56,144 bases of DNA from a virus (taxonomy: Duplodnaviria > Caudoviricetes), in the IMG/VR virus record IMGVR_UViG_3300045957_000043, positions 1 to 56,144 of that record; one strand, 5' to 3'. Shown here one piece after another: positions 4,230-51,741 of the stretch. Numbering within the stretch: the first letter of the stretch is position 1; every line of letters begins with the position of its first letter. The notes under the pieces are model-generated. The model had not been told where the DNA came from. It saw only the letters and a program-made list of their open reading frames with translations, and did no database searches. Position numbers and translations under genes: made by a program.

Positions 4230-4860
4230 TCTCGCAGGGGGTTTTACTCGCGACGAACCACGGGCGGTTCCCGCCGTGTTCGCAGGGGGTTGAAAGTCAG
4301 AAAACGCGCTAAAGGCAAAAACCCCTCTTCTGGGAGGGGGTAGTCTTATTTTATTATATTTTTATATTAATTAATTAGTTATAGCTACTGACCCTTGGTC
4401 TCCCCCCACCCGTGGGGCCCCGTTTGGGGGATTGTGAGAGGGTGACACTTACAACAAATAATTAATTAATAAATTACCCGTCTGAGACGCAAAAAACACT
4501 TGTTTTATAGGGTCAATCAGGCTTCGGGTATTATTTTCGCCAGATGTGGAAACAAAGTCGAATTCGCGCGGCGATGACACAAACTGTCAAATGAAAAATA
4601 GGGAAAAAACTGGCCACGCTTCCGCAGTGAATTAGTTTCAACCCCGGCGCGAACTAATTAGTCTAAGAAACAGAACCCGGGGGGTATGCAAATACCCCCG
4701 CCTGATTTTGGCCTTGAGGGGGCTTCACAGCCCAGCAGCCAGCAAGCCAAATCGCAACCATTTTCCATGCCGGAGGCTCGCTGGTGAGCGTCTATTAAAG
4801 TAGACCCGACCTCGGATCAGCGGTCGACTTCATGTCAAAGAGGGCGGTCCCGCCGGCACT
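4230..4860. other. Putative replication origin region
   Basis: ~630 bp non-coding next to the primase gene; AT-only tracts at 4346-4377 and 4456-4477; TCGCAGGGGGTT direct repeats; several inverted repeats. Confidence 0.5.
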
Positions 4861-7100
4861 CAGATTGTGCTACGTGCGACCCACTGTTTCGGCGGCTTAA
4901 AGTCTGGCATGGCCAGCACCGTCGGGGGCCGCCCCGGTCCCGCTGCGGGCGTGAGATACGCAGCCACTTCCCCGCGTTCAAGCAGACGCAGGACCGCGTG
5001 TTTGATCTTCTTGTGGGCCAGCGTCGTGCTGCGATAAATCTGAGTGAGGCTCTTCGGCTCGTCGGCTAATTGCCGCAGGACGGCACTGGTGAGCTGCTCT
5101 TCGGCTCTGTCTTCGTCTGACGCGATCGTGGCTGCTTTGACGAGCATATCCTCGACAGCCTTCAGGCGGTCCACTACGACGCTGTGAGCGGCCTTAAGAT
5201 CGCATTCTTCGACCTGGAACCCCTGGTCTAGGTTTCCCCAGCTGCGGCTCAACGCGAACAGCAGCGCGAGTTTCTGGATGTGCAGCACCGCGCGAACCCA
5301 GATCGTAGCTCTTACGTTGTTGCCGGCTTCCCGGTCGTCCCGCACTCTGGAATCAATTGCGCGACGGTATTTGCTGAGCAGCTGCCGGCCTTTGGGGCTG
5401 TAGTGTATTGTGCGCGGCTGGTCTAATAGCAAAAGCTGCTTAGCGAACGCGAGTAAAGCTTCCGGGACGGGAATAAACCCGATACTCTCGTCAGCTAGGT
5501 CTACATGCGGGATCTCGAAGACTAAAATCCTGGAGAGAAACCCGTCGATAGATAGCCCTGTGTTTACAGCCGGCCAGAAAGTCTCGGGGGTACTTGCGCC
5601 CTGGACGATCACCCGGGGATTAGTGCACGAGACTTGTTTGCCGTCAGCGTAAGTCTTTCGCACGTGGTCGGTGCTGTACAGTTCCATGAGCGTAACAGGG
5701 AGCGCCGCTAGATGCTGGCTGTTTGAGTTCGCGCGGAGTTTGCCGCCGATCTCGTCGATCTGCAGGAGCACCCCTGGGACTTGCGCGGCGATTGCGACAG
5801 CAGCCTGCGCGCTGGCTACGTCGGTGTAGACTAAGCCGTTAGCGCCGGCTTCGAACATTAAGCTCTGTACGCTTTTGCGGGTGTGCTCTTTGCCACCCCC
5901 GGACGCGGCTAAATTCACAGTAAACAGCCTGAGATCAATCCGGTCTTGCTTGATCGTGCGGCAGCCGAGCGAAGCTAACGCTGTGATCGCTGCAGAGAAC
6001 GCGAACTGCTCGTGCGGCCTGGGCGCCGTCTGCATGTAGTAGTTCATGAACTCCGAGATAAACCCCGGCACCCAGAAATCCACGACCCCCTTGCCTGCTC
6101 CTGCTCCCGCTCCCGGCTCGGTGTTCCCGCTCGGTGGCGCGGGGAGCACTCCTGTAGGCTCGTAAATACAGTCTTCCGCTTTGGCCAGGGCTTGCAGGCT
6201 TCGGTGCATGTCGACTTGCTCGTTTAACGGCGGCTCTTCATGAAATAACTCACGGATAGTCCATTTACAGCTTGCATGGAGACAAGATCCCGTGAGCTTG
6301 CCGTCGGACTGCAGACACACCGAGCACGAGTTATCCCCGACGTGCCTCGGACTGGTATTCTGGGGATTATCTGAATACTCTTTGCAACAGTGAGCTTGCT
6401 TGAATTTCCAGATATAAGCCCCTGAGCCCCAGACTTCCCGTGAAGACTCGATGCCTAGTTCTTGGAGCTTGACTTCGCAGTACAAAGCTTGCTGGCGGAC
6501 CAGCTCGGGGTTACTAACTGCGGGTTCCTGGACTTCGCGCGGTTTATTCCCGGCGATCGCGTGCTGTGAGACCCACTCTAGAAACTCATCTACACATTGC
6601 GATGGGTGGCAGGATTCTGGAGTGCCCAGTAAATCTTCGTTTAAGTCAAACGGCTGATAGGTATTCGCGCAGAACCTACCGGAAGTATTCGCGTAGATTT
6701 CAAGAGTCACGCCACCCGGTAGCTCGTATTTGCCGGAATACTGGGTGTTAGTCTCTGTGTAGCCTAAGAAATGCAGTCCCTTGCCCGAGCAGCTGCGCTC
6801 GCAGAAAGTATCTTTCAGCAGCTCGCAGACCTGCCTGTATTTTGGGTTTAGCTCGCCGGAGTCTAGAAAGACATCTGAGTCTAGGTCTATTAAGACTAGT
6901 TTGTTTTCGCGGTTGCAGTAACACCCTGTGGCGCCACTACACTGTGGCTTAGTCTGAGAGTATTCCTGCGCGAGCTTGTACGAAGTTAAGCCTTGCGGGT
7001 AGCCTTTTGATGTTCCGGTTTTTGGGTTGATCGCGAGTTTGGGATTTTTCTTAGATACCGGCAGGTGACAGTCGAGTTCGCGTAGGTCAACAGCAAGCAT
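4860..7100 (-). CDS. Primase-polymerase (AEP-like) fused to a DUF3987-like helicase domain
   Basis: LIDLD, ERSCSGKGLHF, LEIY...RF in the N-terminus; CLHASC; AASGGGKE Walker A, QIDEIG Walker B, DGFLSR. Confidence 0.85.
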   Translation of the reverse strand: MLAVDLRELDCHLPVSKKNPKLAINPKTGTSKGYPQGLTSYKLAQEYSQTKPQCSGATGCYCNRENKLVLIDLDSDVFLDSGELNPKYRQVCELLKDTFCERSCSGKGLHFLGYTETNTQYSGKYELPGGVTLEIYANTSGRFCANTYQPFDLNEDLLGTPESCHPSQCVDEFLEWVSQHAIAGNKPREVQEPAVSNPELVRQQALYCEVKLQELGIESSREVWGSGAYIWKFKQAHCCKEYSDNPQNTSPRHVGDNSCSVCLQSDGKLTGSCLHASCKWTIRELFHEEPPLNEQVDMHRSLQALAKAEDCIYEPTGVLPAPPSGNTEPGAGAGAGKGVVDFWVPGFISEFMNYYMQTAPRPHEQFAFSAAITALASLGCRTIKQDRIDLRLFTVNLAASGGGKEHTRKSVQSLMFEAGANGLVYTDVASAQAAVAIAAQVPGVLLQIDEIGGKLRANSNSQHLAALPVTLMELYSTDHVRKTYADGKQVSCTNPRVIVQGASTPETFWPAVNTGLSIDGFLSRILVFEIPHVDLADESIGFIPVPEALLAFAKQLLLLDQPRTIHYSPKGRQLLSKYRRAIDSRVRDDREAGNNVRATIWVRAVLHIQKLALLFALSRSWGNLDQGFQVEECDLKAAHSVVVDRLKAVEDMLVKAATIASDEDRAEEQLTSAVLRQLADEPKSLTQIYRSTTLAHKKIKHAVLRLLERGEVAAYLTPAAGPGRPPTVLAMPDFKPPKQWVARSTI

Positions 7101-7191
7101 CGCAGCCCCTCTAAACAAAAACAATGCCGCCTGCAAAACTGCTTGCAAGCGGCATTTAAGTATACCCACCCTGTGATTAGGCAGTCACCGT

Positions 7192-22275: not shown

Positions 22276-22530
22276 GTGCTTGATCTCTTTGTCGTTCTCG
22301 CGGTCGCCGTGGCTTGGGGGGTTTTTGTCTACTCGCGCAAAAAGCCCTTGGAAGGCGGCGTGCCGCCCGGCTCCGAGTCCGCGCAATATCGCGCGCCTTG
22401 CGACTTGTCGCGGGTGAAATGCCTGCTAGAGACACTCGACCCCGAAAAAGACGCGGAGTTGATCGAAGCGATCGTGCGGGCCAGAGTATTAGCCGAGTTA
22501 CCCCAGTCAGTTAGAGACAAACTGAAATGA
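22276..22530 (+). CDS. Small membrane-anchored protein
   Basis: N-terminal TM; ATGA-coupled to the next gene. Confidence 0.7.
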   Translation: MLDLFVVLAVAVAWGVFVYSRKKPLEGGVPPGSESAQYRAPCDLSRVKCLLETLDPEKDAELIEAIVRARVLAELPQSVRDKLK

Positions 22531-22997
22531 ACGATCGGATCGTTAGCGCAGGGACGGTGATCATCTTAGCACTGCTCGTACTGGTGCTCGGGCGGCGGCT
22601 AGTAAACCAGCTCCCAGGGATCGCACCGGATACTAAGCTTCCCGCGAATCTTCAGCCGATTTCGCAGCAAATCTACACTCATATCGGGGGGCAGCCTAAC
22701 GCCCAGCAGGATTGCCGGACGCTCGCGGCACTTTTTCAAGGCTATCAAAACTTGCTGGCAAGCGACGGCAAGGCAGCTCTCTATTACGTTGCTGACCGGG
22801 GCTCGCTCAAAGCCAGATTCGCGCAAATGGGCGAGCTAATCGTAGGGCCTGATTGGCAACTCGGGGAGCGGTATCCGGGGCTGGCGCCAGTGCTCGCCGA
22901 GTACTGTGCACCGATTGATGAATTCCCTGGAGGCCGCGCGCAAGCGGTGCAGCGTTGCCGTGAGCTAGTCGTGGTATTCAGCCACTTGGCTAACTAA
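22527..22997 (+). CDS. Membrane-anchored hypothetical protein
   Basis: N-terminal TM helix, 156 aa. Confidence 0.75.
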   Translation: MNDRIVSAGTVIILALLVLVLGRRLVNQLPGIAPDTKLPANLQPISQQIYTHIGGQPNAQQDCRTLAALFQGYQNLLASDGKAALYYVADRGSLKARFAQMGELIVGPDWQLGERYPGLAPVLAEYCAPIDEFPGGRAQAVQRCRELVVVFSHLAN

Positions 22998-23011
22998 TCA
23001 AGGGGCTTGGG

Positions 23012-24052
23012 ATGACGTTTTTGCGTTGGCTGCTTGTTTGCTGCGGACTGGTCTTTTTAACGGCTACAGCAGGCGTCTCCCAAGAGCCGGCAGCTGACTT
23101 TTCAGTTAACAAAGAAGGCTGGCGGTACGAGCCGGAAGTACTCGAAGCCGCTATCAAGCGGGTTCCCCGTAAGTTTTACGCGCAAGCCGCGATCCTCGCT
23201 GAAGACAGCGACGAACGCACGGTGCTACTGTACCGGTTTGTAGTGCAGGCTCGGGGACTGCCTGCTGGAACTACACTACCAACGCGCGACCAAGGCAACG
23301 TCGGTTCGTGTGTAGGTTACGCGACAGCCAACGCGGTTGATCATTTAAGTGCAGTCCAGATCTACTTGAAAGGGCTGCGCGAGCGATTCGAGGCAGCCAG
23401 CGCGCCGGCGCTTTACGGCATCGGGCGGCAACAGGCTGGTCAACTCGGCGGGTGGGACGGGAGCACCGGTGCCTGGAGCGTCGAGGGAATTCAGCAGCTC
23501 GGCGCGTTGTGGCAGCTAAGCTACGGCGAAGCGGATCTTAGCCGTGAACGACCCAGCGATGCAAAGAATTTCGCCTCGCGGGGGCTGCCGGCAAGCTTAC
23601 TAGAGATTGCACGGGAAACACCCGTGCAGGCGCACGTCGCGGTGCGCGACTGGAAACACGCTCGCGGGCTAATTCAGTCGGGCTTCCCGCTCATCGTGTG
23701 TTCGGACGTGGGCTTTGATAACGGCTCGCGGGGCACACAACGGGACAATCTCGGGTTTGCCTCCCCGCGCGGGTCGTGGATGCACGCGATGTGCTGTGTC
23801 GCTTACCGAGGGCCGGACACGGGGCGCGAAGGTTTTCTGATTTTGAATTCCTGGAACCCGCGTTATATCTCGGGGGAAAAGTGGCCTGAAGACCAACCAG
23901 AAGGGAGTTTTTGGGTCACGCCGGAGGTCCTCGGTAGAATGATTTCAAAGCGGGACACCTGGGGCATTTCAGCGTTAAAGGGTTTCCCTAAAAAGGAACT
24001 CACCCTTCTAGAAATTTTTGAAAACGCAGGTGGGGCGAGAACGGAGAACTAA
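23012..24052 (+). CDS. Secreted papain-like (C1) cysteine peptidase
   Basis: Signal peptide; RDQGNVGSCVG, WMHAM, ILNSW. Confidence 0.9.
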   Translation: MTFLRWLLVCCGLVFLTATAGVSQEPAADFSVNKEGWRYEPEVLEAAIKRVPRKFYAQAAILAEDSDERTVLLYRFVVQARGLPAGTTLPTRDQGNVGSCVGYATANAVDHLSAVQIYLKGLRERFEAASAPALYGIGRQQAGQLGGWDGSTGAWSVEGIQQLGALWQLSYGEADLSRERPSDAKNFASRGLPASLLEIARETPVQAHVAVRDWKHARGLIQSGFPLIVCSDVGFDNGSRGTQRDNLGFASPRGSWMHAMCCVAYRGPDTGREGFLILNSWNPRYISGEKWPEDQPEGSFWVTPEVLGRMISKRDTWGISALKGFPKKELTLLEIFENAGGARTEN

Positions 24053-24054
24053 CG

Positions 24055-24264
24055 ATGTCACGCAGTATTGCTGTCGGGGTCGTACTCGGGGGTCTCGGCT
24101 TGGTCGCAGACACGGCGATCGAGCACCCACCAAAAGAAACCGGGCAGGCGGCTGTCGTCTTGACGGCGCCGGTTACGTCCCCGCATATTGCTCAGCAGCA
24201 GCAGCAGGAACAGCCTACGGGCGATCCGGGGTTTGAGTATTACGCTATCCACGATATGAAGTAA
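24055..24264 (+). CDS. Small membrane/secreted protein
   Basis: Hydrophobic N-terminus, GGAG RBS. Confidence 0.6.
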   Translation: MSRSIAVGVVLGGLGLVADTAIEHPPKETGQAAVVLTAPVTSPHIAQQQQQEQPTGDPGFEYYAIHDMK

Positions 24265-24269
24265 GTGTT

Positions 24270-24485
24270 ATGGGCTGAGGCTGCCGCAAAAAGAAAGCGC
24301 GTGCCGCTTTCGGAAAACCACTGAGCGTAAAAGTTGTTTCCGGCCTGCCTCAGCCGACTGTCATGAGGGGACCGGCGACTAATACGAACTATGGGCGCCG
24401 TCAAGACGGTGATGTCTTCACGGTGTTTGAAAAGGACGTGGAACCGCTCGTCAAAGACGAAACGGTCCGAATCGAAGTCGTGTAG
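24270..24485 (+). CDS. Putative selenoprotein (UxC motif, in-frame UGA at codon 3), 71 aa; not in ORF track
   Basis: MG*GCRKKK...TNYGRRQDGDVFTVFEKD; paralog of 24498-24707; SECIS-like hairpin at 24293-24311. Confidence 0.7.
24293..24311 (+). promoter_or_regulatory. Bacterial SECIS-like hairpin
   Basis: GAAAGCG-CGTGC-CGCTTTC; loop starts 21 nt after the UGA; GU at loop positions 2-3. Confidence 0.55.
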
Positions 24486-24497
24486 GAACCCGATGCA

Positions 24498-24707
24498 ATG
24501 CCTTGTTCAAGTTGTCAGAAACGCCGCGAAGCGCGACTGCGAAATACTGAAATGGTCAAAGTGAAGTTTGTGGATCTACACCCTACAGGCGTGATCCTGC
24601 AGGTTGGCATGACGAACTACGGTTTTCGCAAAAACGGGGACGTTTTGAAAATGTTCAAAACCGACTTCGAGAAGCTGAAATCAGGAGCCGCCGAAATTGT
24701 TGAGTGA
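24498..24707 (+). CDS. Small CxxC protein, paralog of the putative selenoprotein
   Basis: MPCSSCQKRR...TNYGFRKNGDVLKMFKTD. Confidence 0.8.
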   Translation: MPCSSCQKRREARLRNTEMVKVKFVDLHPTGVILQVGMTNYGFRKNGDVLKMFKTDFEKLKSGAAEIVE

Positions 24708-25026
24708 GAGCCCCATCTGGCCGTTAGTCGTCGCGCTTGCCGTGTGGCGCGTCACGCACATGATCACTGATGAAGACGGACCGTTGCGCGTGTTGTGGTA
24801 TTTGCGCGAGGCTTTGGGAGGGAACCAGCCTGACCCATCGCCGGGGTCTGCTGGGGACTTAATCAGTTGCGCGTATTGTCTGTCGGTGTGGGTCGCGCTG
24901 GTGTTTGTACTCTTAATGCAGCTTAACCTGAGAGCTGTGAATATCGGTTTCGAAGTACTCGCGCTGAGTGCCGTCTCGGTCTTCGCGACGACACTGCATA
25001 ACTACGTCAACGACCAGCTAAGCTAG
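24697..25026 (+). CDS. DUF1360-like membrane protein with CxxC
   Basis: LAVWRVTHMITDEDGP...LISCAYCLSVWVAL; about 3 TM segments; AGGAG RBS. Confidence 0.85.
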   Translation: MLSESPIWPLVVALAVWRVTHMITDEDGPLRVLWYLREALGGNQPDPSPGSAGDLISCAYCLSVWVALVFVLLMQLNLRAVNIGFEVLALSAVSVFATTLHNYVNDQLS

Positions 25027-50265: not shown

Positions 50266-51741
50266 TCAGTACACAATCTCACTCAGGAGGAAAGTAGCGA
50301 CCTCAAGAGCGTCTGGTCCGTCGTCATGTGCCGTCCGCGAGGGAAACGCGCGGAGCTGGCGTACAGTAAGCCCAGTGCCCCGGCTCCTGACAAACTTGAT
50401 ATCTCGGTTACGAATAAACGCATCTAGCCCTTCGGTAATCCGGTCTTCTTTGCTGCGCGGCGCGTCGCGCAAGACGTTATCAACTTCCATGATCTGACAG
50501 TTGATGCCTTGCTCGTGAAATACATCATCCGCAGTCGCGCCGATCAAAAACTGCATCGCGTTTGATTCGATGCCCACAACGTCGGGAACCCTGGGGAGCT
50601 TTTTAGTGCAGAACCGCGCAAGGCGCTGTACTGTCTCGAACGGGCCGTCTTTCTCTAGGTCAGCTTCACAGTAAAGCTGCCCCGTGCGGTCAGAGCCCAA
50701 GGCTACAACCGCACTGTAGTCGCCGTCTCTTAAAGCCCTTCCGGTCGCGGGGTCGACTGCTACAACCAACCATTCAATCTGGCTTGGCCACTTATCAACC
50801 CACTGCGACTCACTAAATAAGCTCCCCTCCCAGAGCAGCCCGTCCTGCGTGATCGGTCTCTGTTGGTAGGTCGCGTTCCACGCAAACCGGCTCAGCAAAT
50901 CGCGGCGGTTTTCGAGATACTCAAGCGGCAGAATTCCAGGGCAAAGGCTTTCACCCTTGCGCATGATCAGCTCGTTGTTGTGGTAGACATCGTCTTCCGC
51001 GAGCGCGGGAAGAATCAGCTTGCGCCACTTGATATGACCGCCTTCGTTCTCCTGGTCAAGCAGTCTCCCTAAGTGGTCTTCCGAGTGCCATCTTGTTCCG
51101 ACTGAGACAAGTTTAGTTTTCAGCTCGTCGTTGTCTTGCACGCGCTGCAGGAGCGTCATGTCAATCCAAGCCCAAATCTTGTCTCGGACTTTCTCGCTCA
51201 AAGCCTCTTCCGTGTCTTTGATCAAGTCATCCAAGATAATCAGATGACACTTCTGCCCCGTGATCCCGCCGCCCCAGCCAATGCAGTTGAAGCTACCCTC
51301 ATGCCCTTCAATGCCCCAGGACTCGTTCGCAGTTCGCTTCTTGGATAGCTTCAGGTTGAACAAATCCCCCGCGTTGTGCCTGAACACCTCTTTGCACTGC
51401 GCGCCGAACCGATTCGCCGTCGGTTGGTTGTACGTCACGATATACACGTTCTCGTCTGGGTGCATCGCAAAGTATCGCGTCGCACCATACAGCATCGTGC
51501 TCATCGTTTTACCCACACGCGGTGGGCAATTAATCATCAGGTACGGGTGCTCCCCCGAGAATACTTTCTCCAGCTCGGTATCTAGCAGCTTCGTGTGCCA
51601 GTACGGCTTAAAGAAGCTCGGCTTGTGGTTTAACATCCAGGCAAACGTCGAAACGCTACACAGGCTTCTCCTTGTCGCAATCGGCAAGTCCCGAAAGCTC
51701 TTCGCGCCCGAAATATGCTCCCGGATCGTCTCAATCGCCAT
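50266..51741 (-). CDS. terL: Terminase large subunit
   Basis: PPRVGKT, IILDDLIKD, GTRWHSED, VDPA, DYSA, HDDGPDAL. Confidence 0.95.
   Translation of the reverse strand: MAIETIREHISGAKSFRDLPIATRRSLCSVSTFAWMLNHKPSFFKPYWHTKLLDTELEKVFSGEHPYLMINCPPRVGKTMSTMLYGATRYFAMHPDENVYIVTYNQPTANRFGAQCKEVFRHNAGDLFNLKLSKKRTANESWGIEGHEGSFNCIGWGGGITGQKCHLIILDDLIKDTEEALSEKVRDKIWAWIDMTLLQRVQDNDELKTKLVSVGTRWHSEDHLGRLLDQENEGGHIKWRKLILPALAEDDVYHNNELIMRKGESLCPGILPLEYLENRRDLLSRFAWNATYQQRPITQDGLLWEGSLFSESQWVDKWPSQIEWLVVAVDPATGRALRDGDYSAVVALGSDRTGQLYCEADLEKDGPFETVQRLARFCTKKLPRVPDVVGIESNAMQFLIGATADDVFHEQGINCQIMEVDNVLRDAPRSKEDRITEGLDAFIRNRDIKFVRSRGTGLTVRQLRAFPSRTAHDDGPDALEVATFLLSEIVY

Follow-up and report, generated by a model that had tools for sequence, protein, structure and literature searches.

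A TGA-bearing phage gene and its cysteine-form paralog

The DNA analysed here (the window) comprises an IMG/VR virus record in full, linear and 56,144 bases long, with a CheckV completeness of 68% and a GC content of 53-58%. It carries tailed-phage genes (terminase, lambda-type portal, tape measure) as well as genes of replication type (family A DNA polymerase, SNF2 helicase, DUF3987, D12 methylase), and the only run containing this DNA is a sediment metagenome. Between the replication and the tail genes, both on the minus strand, lies a short plus-strand block (22276-25026) that comprises small membrane-like ORFs, a 346-aa protein, a 69-aa ORF, two paralogs with a cysteine motif and a DUF1360 protein. 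The 346-aa protein has only a weak papain-like match (E 0.16), and for the C1-peptidase-like neighbour a single distant locus was found (L001, 29% identity), of which no use was made. As a whole, the block resembles a lysis or envelope module in which no peptidoglycan hydrolase can be recognised.

The first of the two paralogs is the subject of this study (Table 1). The ORF upstream of it, whose ATG is preceded by a GGAG-like run, is followed by the five bases GTGTT, the ATG at 24270, GGC, the in-frame TGA, GGC and TGC, after which the frame stays open until the TAG at 24483-24485. Reading through the TGA yields a product of 71 residues, and translation with table 11 gives only the 40-aa ORF. 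With the upstream stop ending 5 nt before its ATG, the gene is placed for translational coupling.

Table 1. Features in and around the TGA-bearing gene (positions within the window)
Feature	Position	Strand	Basis or remark
Upstream ORF, 69 aa, hydrophobic N-terminus	24055-24264	+	TAA stop 24262-24264; no Pfam family
71-codon ORF, P0001 when the TGA is read through	24270-24485	+	direct reading; paralog and homolog alignments
In-frame TGA, codon 3, at the Cys column of the homologs	24276-24278	+	direct reading; alignment
7-bp hairpin GAAAGCG/CGUGC/CGCUUUC	24293-24311	+	stem 24293-24299/24305-24311, loop CGUGC
40-aa ORF of standard gene calling (P0002)	24363-24485	+	without the N-terminal motif, helix and first strand of the family
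Cys-form paralog, 69 aa, MPCSSCQKRR...	24498-24707	+	BLASTP; alignment
DUF1360 membrane protein, last gene of the plus-strand block	24697-25026	+	PF07098, E 6.6e-08; phrog_781

The read-through product and the paralog, which begins 13 nt downstream of the TGA gene, are related by BLASTP (E 2e-08, 20/58 identical), the match beginning at residue 4 of the former and residue 5 of the latter. Furthermore, phmmer, run exhaustively against 1.84 billion representatives (E <= 0.001), returned four proteins, namely the window's own 40-aa product, P0003, P0004 and P0005. P0004, a protein of 63 aa with the N-terminus MGCGCGKKK that is encoded on three contigs of up to 9949 bases, aligns through its residues 1-55 with query residues 1-59, and because residue 1 of the one falls on residue 1 of the other, ATG 24270 is the start of the family. 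The true start of P0003 is uncertain, as its contig is only 967 bases long. P0005, a repetitive metagenomic protein of 345 aa, matches the query at residues 3-27 only and was excluded as spurious from every alignment; its repeat unit resembles these residues of the query (G-C-...-A-R-x-A-F-G-[KR]-P), and the protein probably arises from translating a DNA repeat.

When the four remaining sequences were aligned, the column of the TGA held cysteine in the paralog, P0004 and P0003, that is, in all three other rows, and ten columns were invariant, every one of them kept by the TGA gene. Searching 5.8 billion clustered proteins with a profile revealed no further member, and no relative was found among viral contigs (queried with P0001, the paralog and alignment A2) or metagenome contigs (alignment A2); in named phages, P0004 had tblastn matches with E >= 4 only, the ESM Atlas gave no usable match, and a cluster look-up two single-member clusters. 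The family thus counts four known members, of which this phage encodes two, with an N-terminal Cys-x-Cys or Cys-x-x-Cys followed by basic residues and a T-x-Y-G-x-R-x-x-G-D core as its features. The 71-codon ORF is a real member of this very small phage protein family.

An earlier note on this DNA had described the ATG at 24270, the TGA, the open frame up to the TAG, the adjoining paralog and a 7-bp hairpin, all of which are present to the exact base. Its choice of start codon agrees with the phmmer alignment to P0004, and its claim that the TGA stands in place of a cysteine, which it had drawn from one homolog, now extends to three. It had also raised the possibility of an assembly error. A 39,004-base Logan contig from run X1 is identical to 23900-24900 (0 differences over 1001 bases), shows the same TGA at a word depth of 15.8 and contains no variant. 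Since X1 may be the source sample of the window, this contig would represent a second assembly and not second data; the match rules out a slip of the assembler and leaves a read-level artefact as the form that an error could still take.

Nonsense or selenocysteine at codon 3

A TGA at the cysteine column could mean selenocysteine, and a recent knock-out mutation would fit the alignment about as well. The reading that we slightly prefer, albeit tentatively, is a recent opal nonsense allele of a redundant paralog. A single transversion of TGC or TGT to TGA would have struck one of two tandem paralogs, upon which the ribosome would end after Met-Gly, full-length protein would appear at most in traces by leaky reading, and the adjoining Cys-form paralog would carry the function. 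With this paralog so close downstream, loss of the TGA gene would be tolerable. Possible as well, though we regard it with slightly more doubt, is a phage selenoprotein, for which SelB and Sec-tRNA of the host would use the hairpin to decode the UGA at codon 3; the resulting start, Met-Gly-Sec-Gly-Cys, would be the selenium version of the Cys-Gly-Cys start of the family.

The use of TGA elsewhere in this phage favours the nonsense allele. Among 77 greedy non-overlapping ORFs of at least 60 aa, 29 stop at TGA, 25 at TAG and 23 at TAA, and TGA likewise ends 8 of the 32 ORFs of at least 150 aa, the long genes 4860-7169 and 50266-51741 being examples. By default, TGA is therefore a stop in this host, and on the preferred reading we infer termination at the TGA of codon 3. 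In addition, no other TGA-interrupted gene was found in the window, which points in the same direction. The candidates for a second selenocysteine gene in the phage were rejected, as the TGA-split frames turned out to be antisense, Arg-rich junk frames or merely neighbouring genes. A genome-wide reassignment of TGA, like that of codes 4/25, is ruled out by the 29 TGA stops together with the lack of another TGA-split gene.

Against a random nonsense mutation stands the site that was hit. Codon 3 accounts for one of the 20 single-base routes to a stop in the 71-codon ORF, so a random hit would strike this cysteine in only about 5% of cases. Moreover, the rest of the gene is intact, with the ten invariant columns preserved and with 68 open codons after the TGA, a run that remained open in only 957 of 20,000 shuffles (4.8%), and TGA is the only allele seen at the given depth. 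The same intactness of an ORF that starts 5 nt after the upstream stop speaks for selenocysteine. So does the origin from a sediment, a setting in which selenocysteine users are common and which accordingly counts against the nonsense allele. Finally, the alignment of the TGA to cysteine in three of three homologs goes beyond the at least two Cys homologs demanded at a TGA column in the consulted part of Zhang and Gladyshev 2007 (PMC1976440). There, clusters of one sequence are called "selenoprotein candidates", and the TGA gene, a single sequence, is by this rule such a candidate and nothing firmer, which weighs against selenocysteine.

The hairpin behind the TGA can be weighed on both sides. 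Its loop begins 21 nt downstream of the TGA, and loop positions 2-3 are occupied by G and U. Taken alone it reaches -7.1 kcal/mol with 3 A-U pairs, and within a 60-nt context -8.5 kcal/mol versus a minimum free energy of -12.7 kcal/mol, each of its pairs having a probability of about 0.10 and the structure making up 10% of the free-RNA ensemble. Once the 12-15 nt at the 5' end are removed (sequence start 24288-24293), as would be the case under a ribosome, it becomes the minimum-energy fold. We further counted hairpins by an exact-stem rule that demands at least 7 Watson-Crick pairs, a loop of 3-14 nt with G in one of its first two positions, and a loop start 16-37 nt after the codon. Such hairpins occur at 1316 of 112,148 positions (1.2%) and behind 15 of 1577 TGA triplets, and looser stem rules pass 4.5% to 49% of positions. 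The position and loop of the hairpin, its dominance in the shortened fold and the rarity of an equally perfect stem argue for selenocysteine. A perfect 7-bp stem with a G-U loop, spaced compatibly with a SECIS, is present at no more than about 1% of positions and counts against the nonsense allele.

In terms of energy, on the other hand, the region is ordinary (z +0.66, 140/200 shuffles as good; in a second test z +0.15, 96/200 as good). When the corresponding 42 nt after codon 3 were folded in 20 distinct genes bearing the motif with Cys, 6 folded as well as the TGA gene, at -8.8 kcal/mol or better, the paralog having -6.5 kcal/mol. Furthermore, the peptide K-K-A-R-A-A-F imposes four of the seven pairs, as the codons of Lys (AAA) and Phe (UUC), and those of Ala and Ala (GCN/GCN), are complementary. 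Hence a weak and not distinctive structure, matched in Cys-form genes and largely dictated by the protein, fits the nonsense allele and tells against selenocysteine. At gathering score, Rfam gave nothing in the window, and for 24200-24400 it gave chance-level rows only. The hairpin is compatible with a bacterial SECIS and is weak evidence for one; of the SECIS-like element that had been proposed, the stem and loop are present, and they are not distinct from shuffles by energy or from Cys-form controls.

Other TGA-bearing sequences were sought with a DNA-level motif pattern that allowed TGA, TGC or TGT at codon 3, leaving out the window's own record. Among viral contigs it matched 23 loci (L002-L024), 14 with TGC, 9 with TGT and 0 with TGA, and a pattern with TGA at codon 5 had no match in the viral contigs. 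In JGI metagenome contigs, a TGA-only pattern gave 2 matches, both lying in another frame of a longer ORF. Genome contigs gave 10 matches, 3 with Cys and 7 with TGA, and the frames of the latter shut after 5-28 codons; two of the seven share a flank with a metagenome false match. At L025, L026, L030 and L033, the TGA form of the motif arises by chance in another frame of a conserved bacterial gene (...WAEDAVRKS...), an accident that constitutes a trap for DNA-pattern searches of this kind. In the collections searched (proteins, viral, metagenome and genome contigs), the TGA form is a singleton. The earlier note had named homologs that never carry TGA as evidence against its own proposal, and across the three homologs and the 23 motif-bearing genes this is what was found, in favour of the nonsense allele and at the expense of selenocysteine.

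Of the selenocysteine machinery, as had been noted before, none is encoded in the record, 68% complete as it is: SelA and SelD are missing, the sole SelB-wing match (11.7 bits, below the cut-off) lies inside a peptidase gene, and ARAGORN found no tRNA in the window. The terminase matches named phages at less than 60% identity (about 27-29% among the matches listed) with scattered hosts, and it has no close relative among 185,579 species genomes and the IMG/VR viral contigs. With matches so distant and spread across many different hosts, no host could be called, and both results count against selenocysteine.

Compared with known systems, the phage gene shares with bacterial genes read by SelB through a SECIS within the ORF, such as E. 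coli fdhF, an in-frame UGA at the cysteine column of its homologs, a stem-loop that follows the UGA immediately on its 3' side and has G in its apical loop, and a Cys-form paralog in the same genome. It differs in that its UGA is known from one sequence only and lies at codon 3, and in that it belongs to a phage; in addition, its hairpin is weak and starts 14 nt after the UGA, whereas that of fdhF starts 11 nt after it. We know of no bacterial selenocysteine codon as early as codon 3, which would be the earliest position known to us, and this apparent lack of precedent argues for the nonsense allele and against selenocysteine. Opal nonsense alleles in redundant tandem paralogs (young pseudogenes), in turn, resemble the phage gene in being one base away from TGY, in an otherwise intact gene and with a working copy adjoining. 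The phage gene differs from them in that its TGA falls on the one conserved motif cysteine (one of 20 routes) and has a SECIS-compatible hairpin behind it.

If selenocysteine is indeed inserted, the phage would borrow the machinery of its host as poxviruses do; beyond their glutathione peroxidases in molluscum contagiosum and fowlpox, the consulted part of a 2021 review (PMC8310308) names no viral selenoprotein gene. Poxviruses, however, infect eukaryotes, and theirs are enzymes captured from the host, with SECIS elements of the eukaryotic type, whereas the phage gene encodes an uncharacterised small protein and would need a bacterial-type mechanism. Among the titles and abstract openings retrieved from the literature, none reports a bacteriophage selenoprotein gene. 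A true case would imply that phages can tap the selenium machinery of their hosts, and would bring to light genes that are truncated by standard callers. Its Sec-Gly-Cys start would then be the selenium form of the MGCGC-basic motif that heads many otherwise unrelated phage proteins, suggesting redox or metal chemistry as the job of this motif. As a singleton with an ordinary hairpin, this instance cannot alone carry the claim of phage selenoproteins; it does provide a cheap and clean test case for read-through, comprising some 90 nt of sequence.

Other routes past the TGA

Readings other than the nonsense allele and selenocysteine, even taken jointly, appear unlikely, though not negligible. 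Unlikely in its own right is another kind of recoding, in which the single UGA would be read as Trp or Cys by a near-cognate or a suppressor tRNA, possibly with the help of a release-factor-like protein or of a tRNA encoded in the third of the genome that the record lacks. The former could be the 114-aa product of 1973-2317 on the minus strand, which shows a weak resemblance to the GGQ domain of release factor 1 (E 0.059; PDB 2fvo/1rq0) and reads GGG where release factor 1 has GGQ. If real, it would be a catalytically dead piece of a release factor, and could bear on the reading of stop codons. This likeness and the 68% completeness of the record leave room for such a route, but the likeness is marginal, with nothing in Pfam at E <= 0.01, and the window is without tRNA. 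Moreover, the 29 TGA-ended ORFs would not be spared by a strong suppressor, and Trp at the cysteine column would destroy the motif.

We consider it even less probable that the working product is the 40-aa C-terminal piece, with ATG-GGC-TGA as a two-codon leader. Downstream of the TGA, the first standard start is ATG 24363, and gene callers choose it, but we saw no Shine-Dalgarno-like run before it, and neither P0004 nor P0003 has Met at its column. In addition, residues 4-31, which are homologous to the paralog and P0004, would be lost, and with them the modelled helix 5-14 and the strands 17-23 and 30-33.

Most improbable of all appears an origin of the TGA in a consensus read error, or else its circumvention by a -1 frameshift from GTG 24265 into the frame of the ORF on an A-run. 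An error would be favoured by GGCTGAGGCTGC, one base away from a perfect GGCTGC repeat, as GGC-rich context is error-prone on Illumina machines; the two agreeing assemblies, with their depth and without a variant, speak against it. As for the frameshift, the 19-codon frame beginning at GTG 24265 would be fused to the ORF by a -1 slip at GCA-AAA-AGA. However, GCA-AAA-AGA is not a canonical X-XXY-YYZ in the frame of the GTG, the hairpin overlaps the A-run instead of lying 5-9 nt behind it, and the product would be without the conserved MGCGC-type start. A programmed -1 frameshift was rejected on account of the heptamer and of the hairpin.

Predicted fold and the N-terminal cysteine motif

AlphaFold2 run on the four-row alignment gave a model with a pLDDT of 80.5 and a pTM of 0.62, in which a helix (5-14) is followed by four strands (17-23, 30-33, 40-44, 49-53), a second helix (54-62) and a last strand (67-70). 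The first ten residues, where the cysteine motif lies, are of low confidence (mean 54). Fold searches of PDB and BFVD returned no match at E <= 0.001, and the GINS-like and PsaD-like rows (E 0.15-0.3) are in our view noise. The protein is thus predicted to be a small helix-plus-beta domain and not a thioredoxin fold. A redox role would derive from the two N-terminal cysteines only, and the earlier proposal of a UxC redox protein with a CxxC paralog as backup is accordingly reduced to this motif, the predicted fold having no thioredoxin-like match.

The closest described families are Pfam DUF7196 (PF23826) and phrog_2069, both profiles of 68 positions, the first of which match the MG-C-G-C-basic start. 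This likeness is confined to the N-terminal motif: the read-through product scores 15 bits to DUF7196, over residues 1-33 only, and other motif bearers 11-21 bits, all below the gathering cut-off of 27 bits. A six-frame search of the record with DUF7196 gave no match, and we found no mention of this family in the literature searched.

The motif itself, MGCGC plus G or R and then KK, stands at the N-terminus of unrelated viral proteins at the 23 loci described above. At six of these (L004, L005, L008, L009, L019, L021) it stands on Erv1/Alr oxidases of 184-214 aa, and all four tested lie above the Pfam cut-off; it is further found on a zinc-ribbon-like 60-aa protein (L017), a 136-aa protein (L024) and many basic proteins of 20-66 aa. 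L005, with genes for a mitochondrial carrier, RFC1, TK and ThyX, is a giant virus of eukaryotes, and the motif there presumably acts as a myristoyl/palmitoyl signal (cf. Lck). The set of motif bearers is mixed, given that at this locus the motif is probably a lipidation signal. We had considered the CGC start as an Erv2-like shuttle disulfide, and abandoned it since L005, the one oxidase locus examined, is a giant virus, so that the link to Erv is uninformative on phages. In the literature, "MGCGC" brought up no title on phages among the matches listed. The MGCGC-basic start therefore recurs on unrelated viral proteins, with no function described in phages. At several loci of small proteins (L003, L010, L013, L017, L022), a GGAG-like run precedes the ATG, and these are apparently phage genes. 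For instance, on the high-GC phage contig L010 (5735-7797, minus strand), a 58-aa MGCGC protein is encoded directly upstream of ORFs of 614 aa and 299 aa, which look like head genes, a context unlike that of the window.
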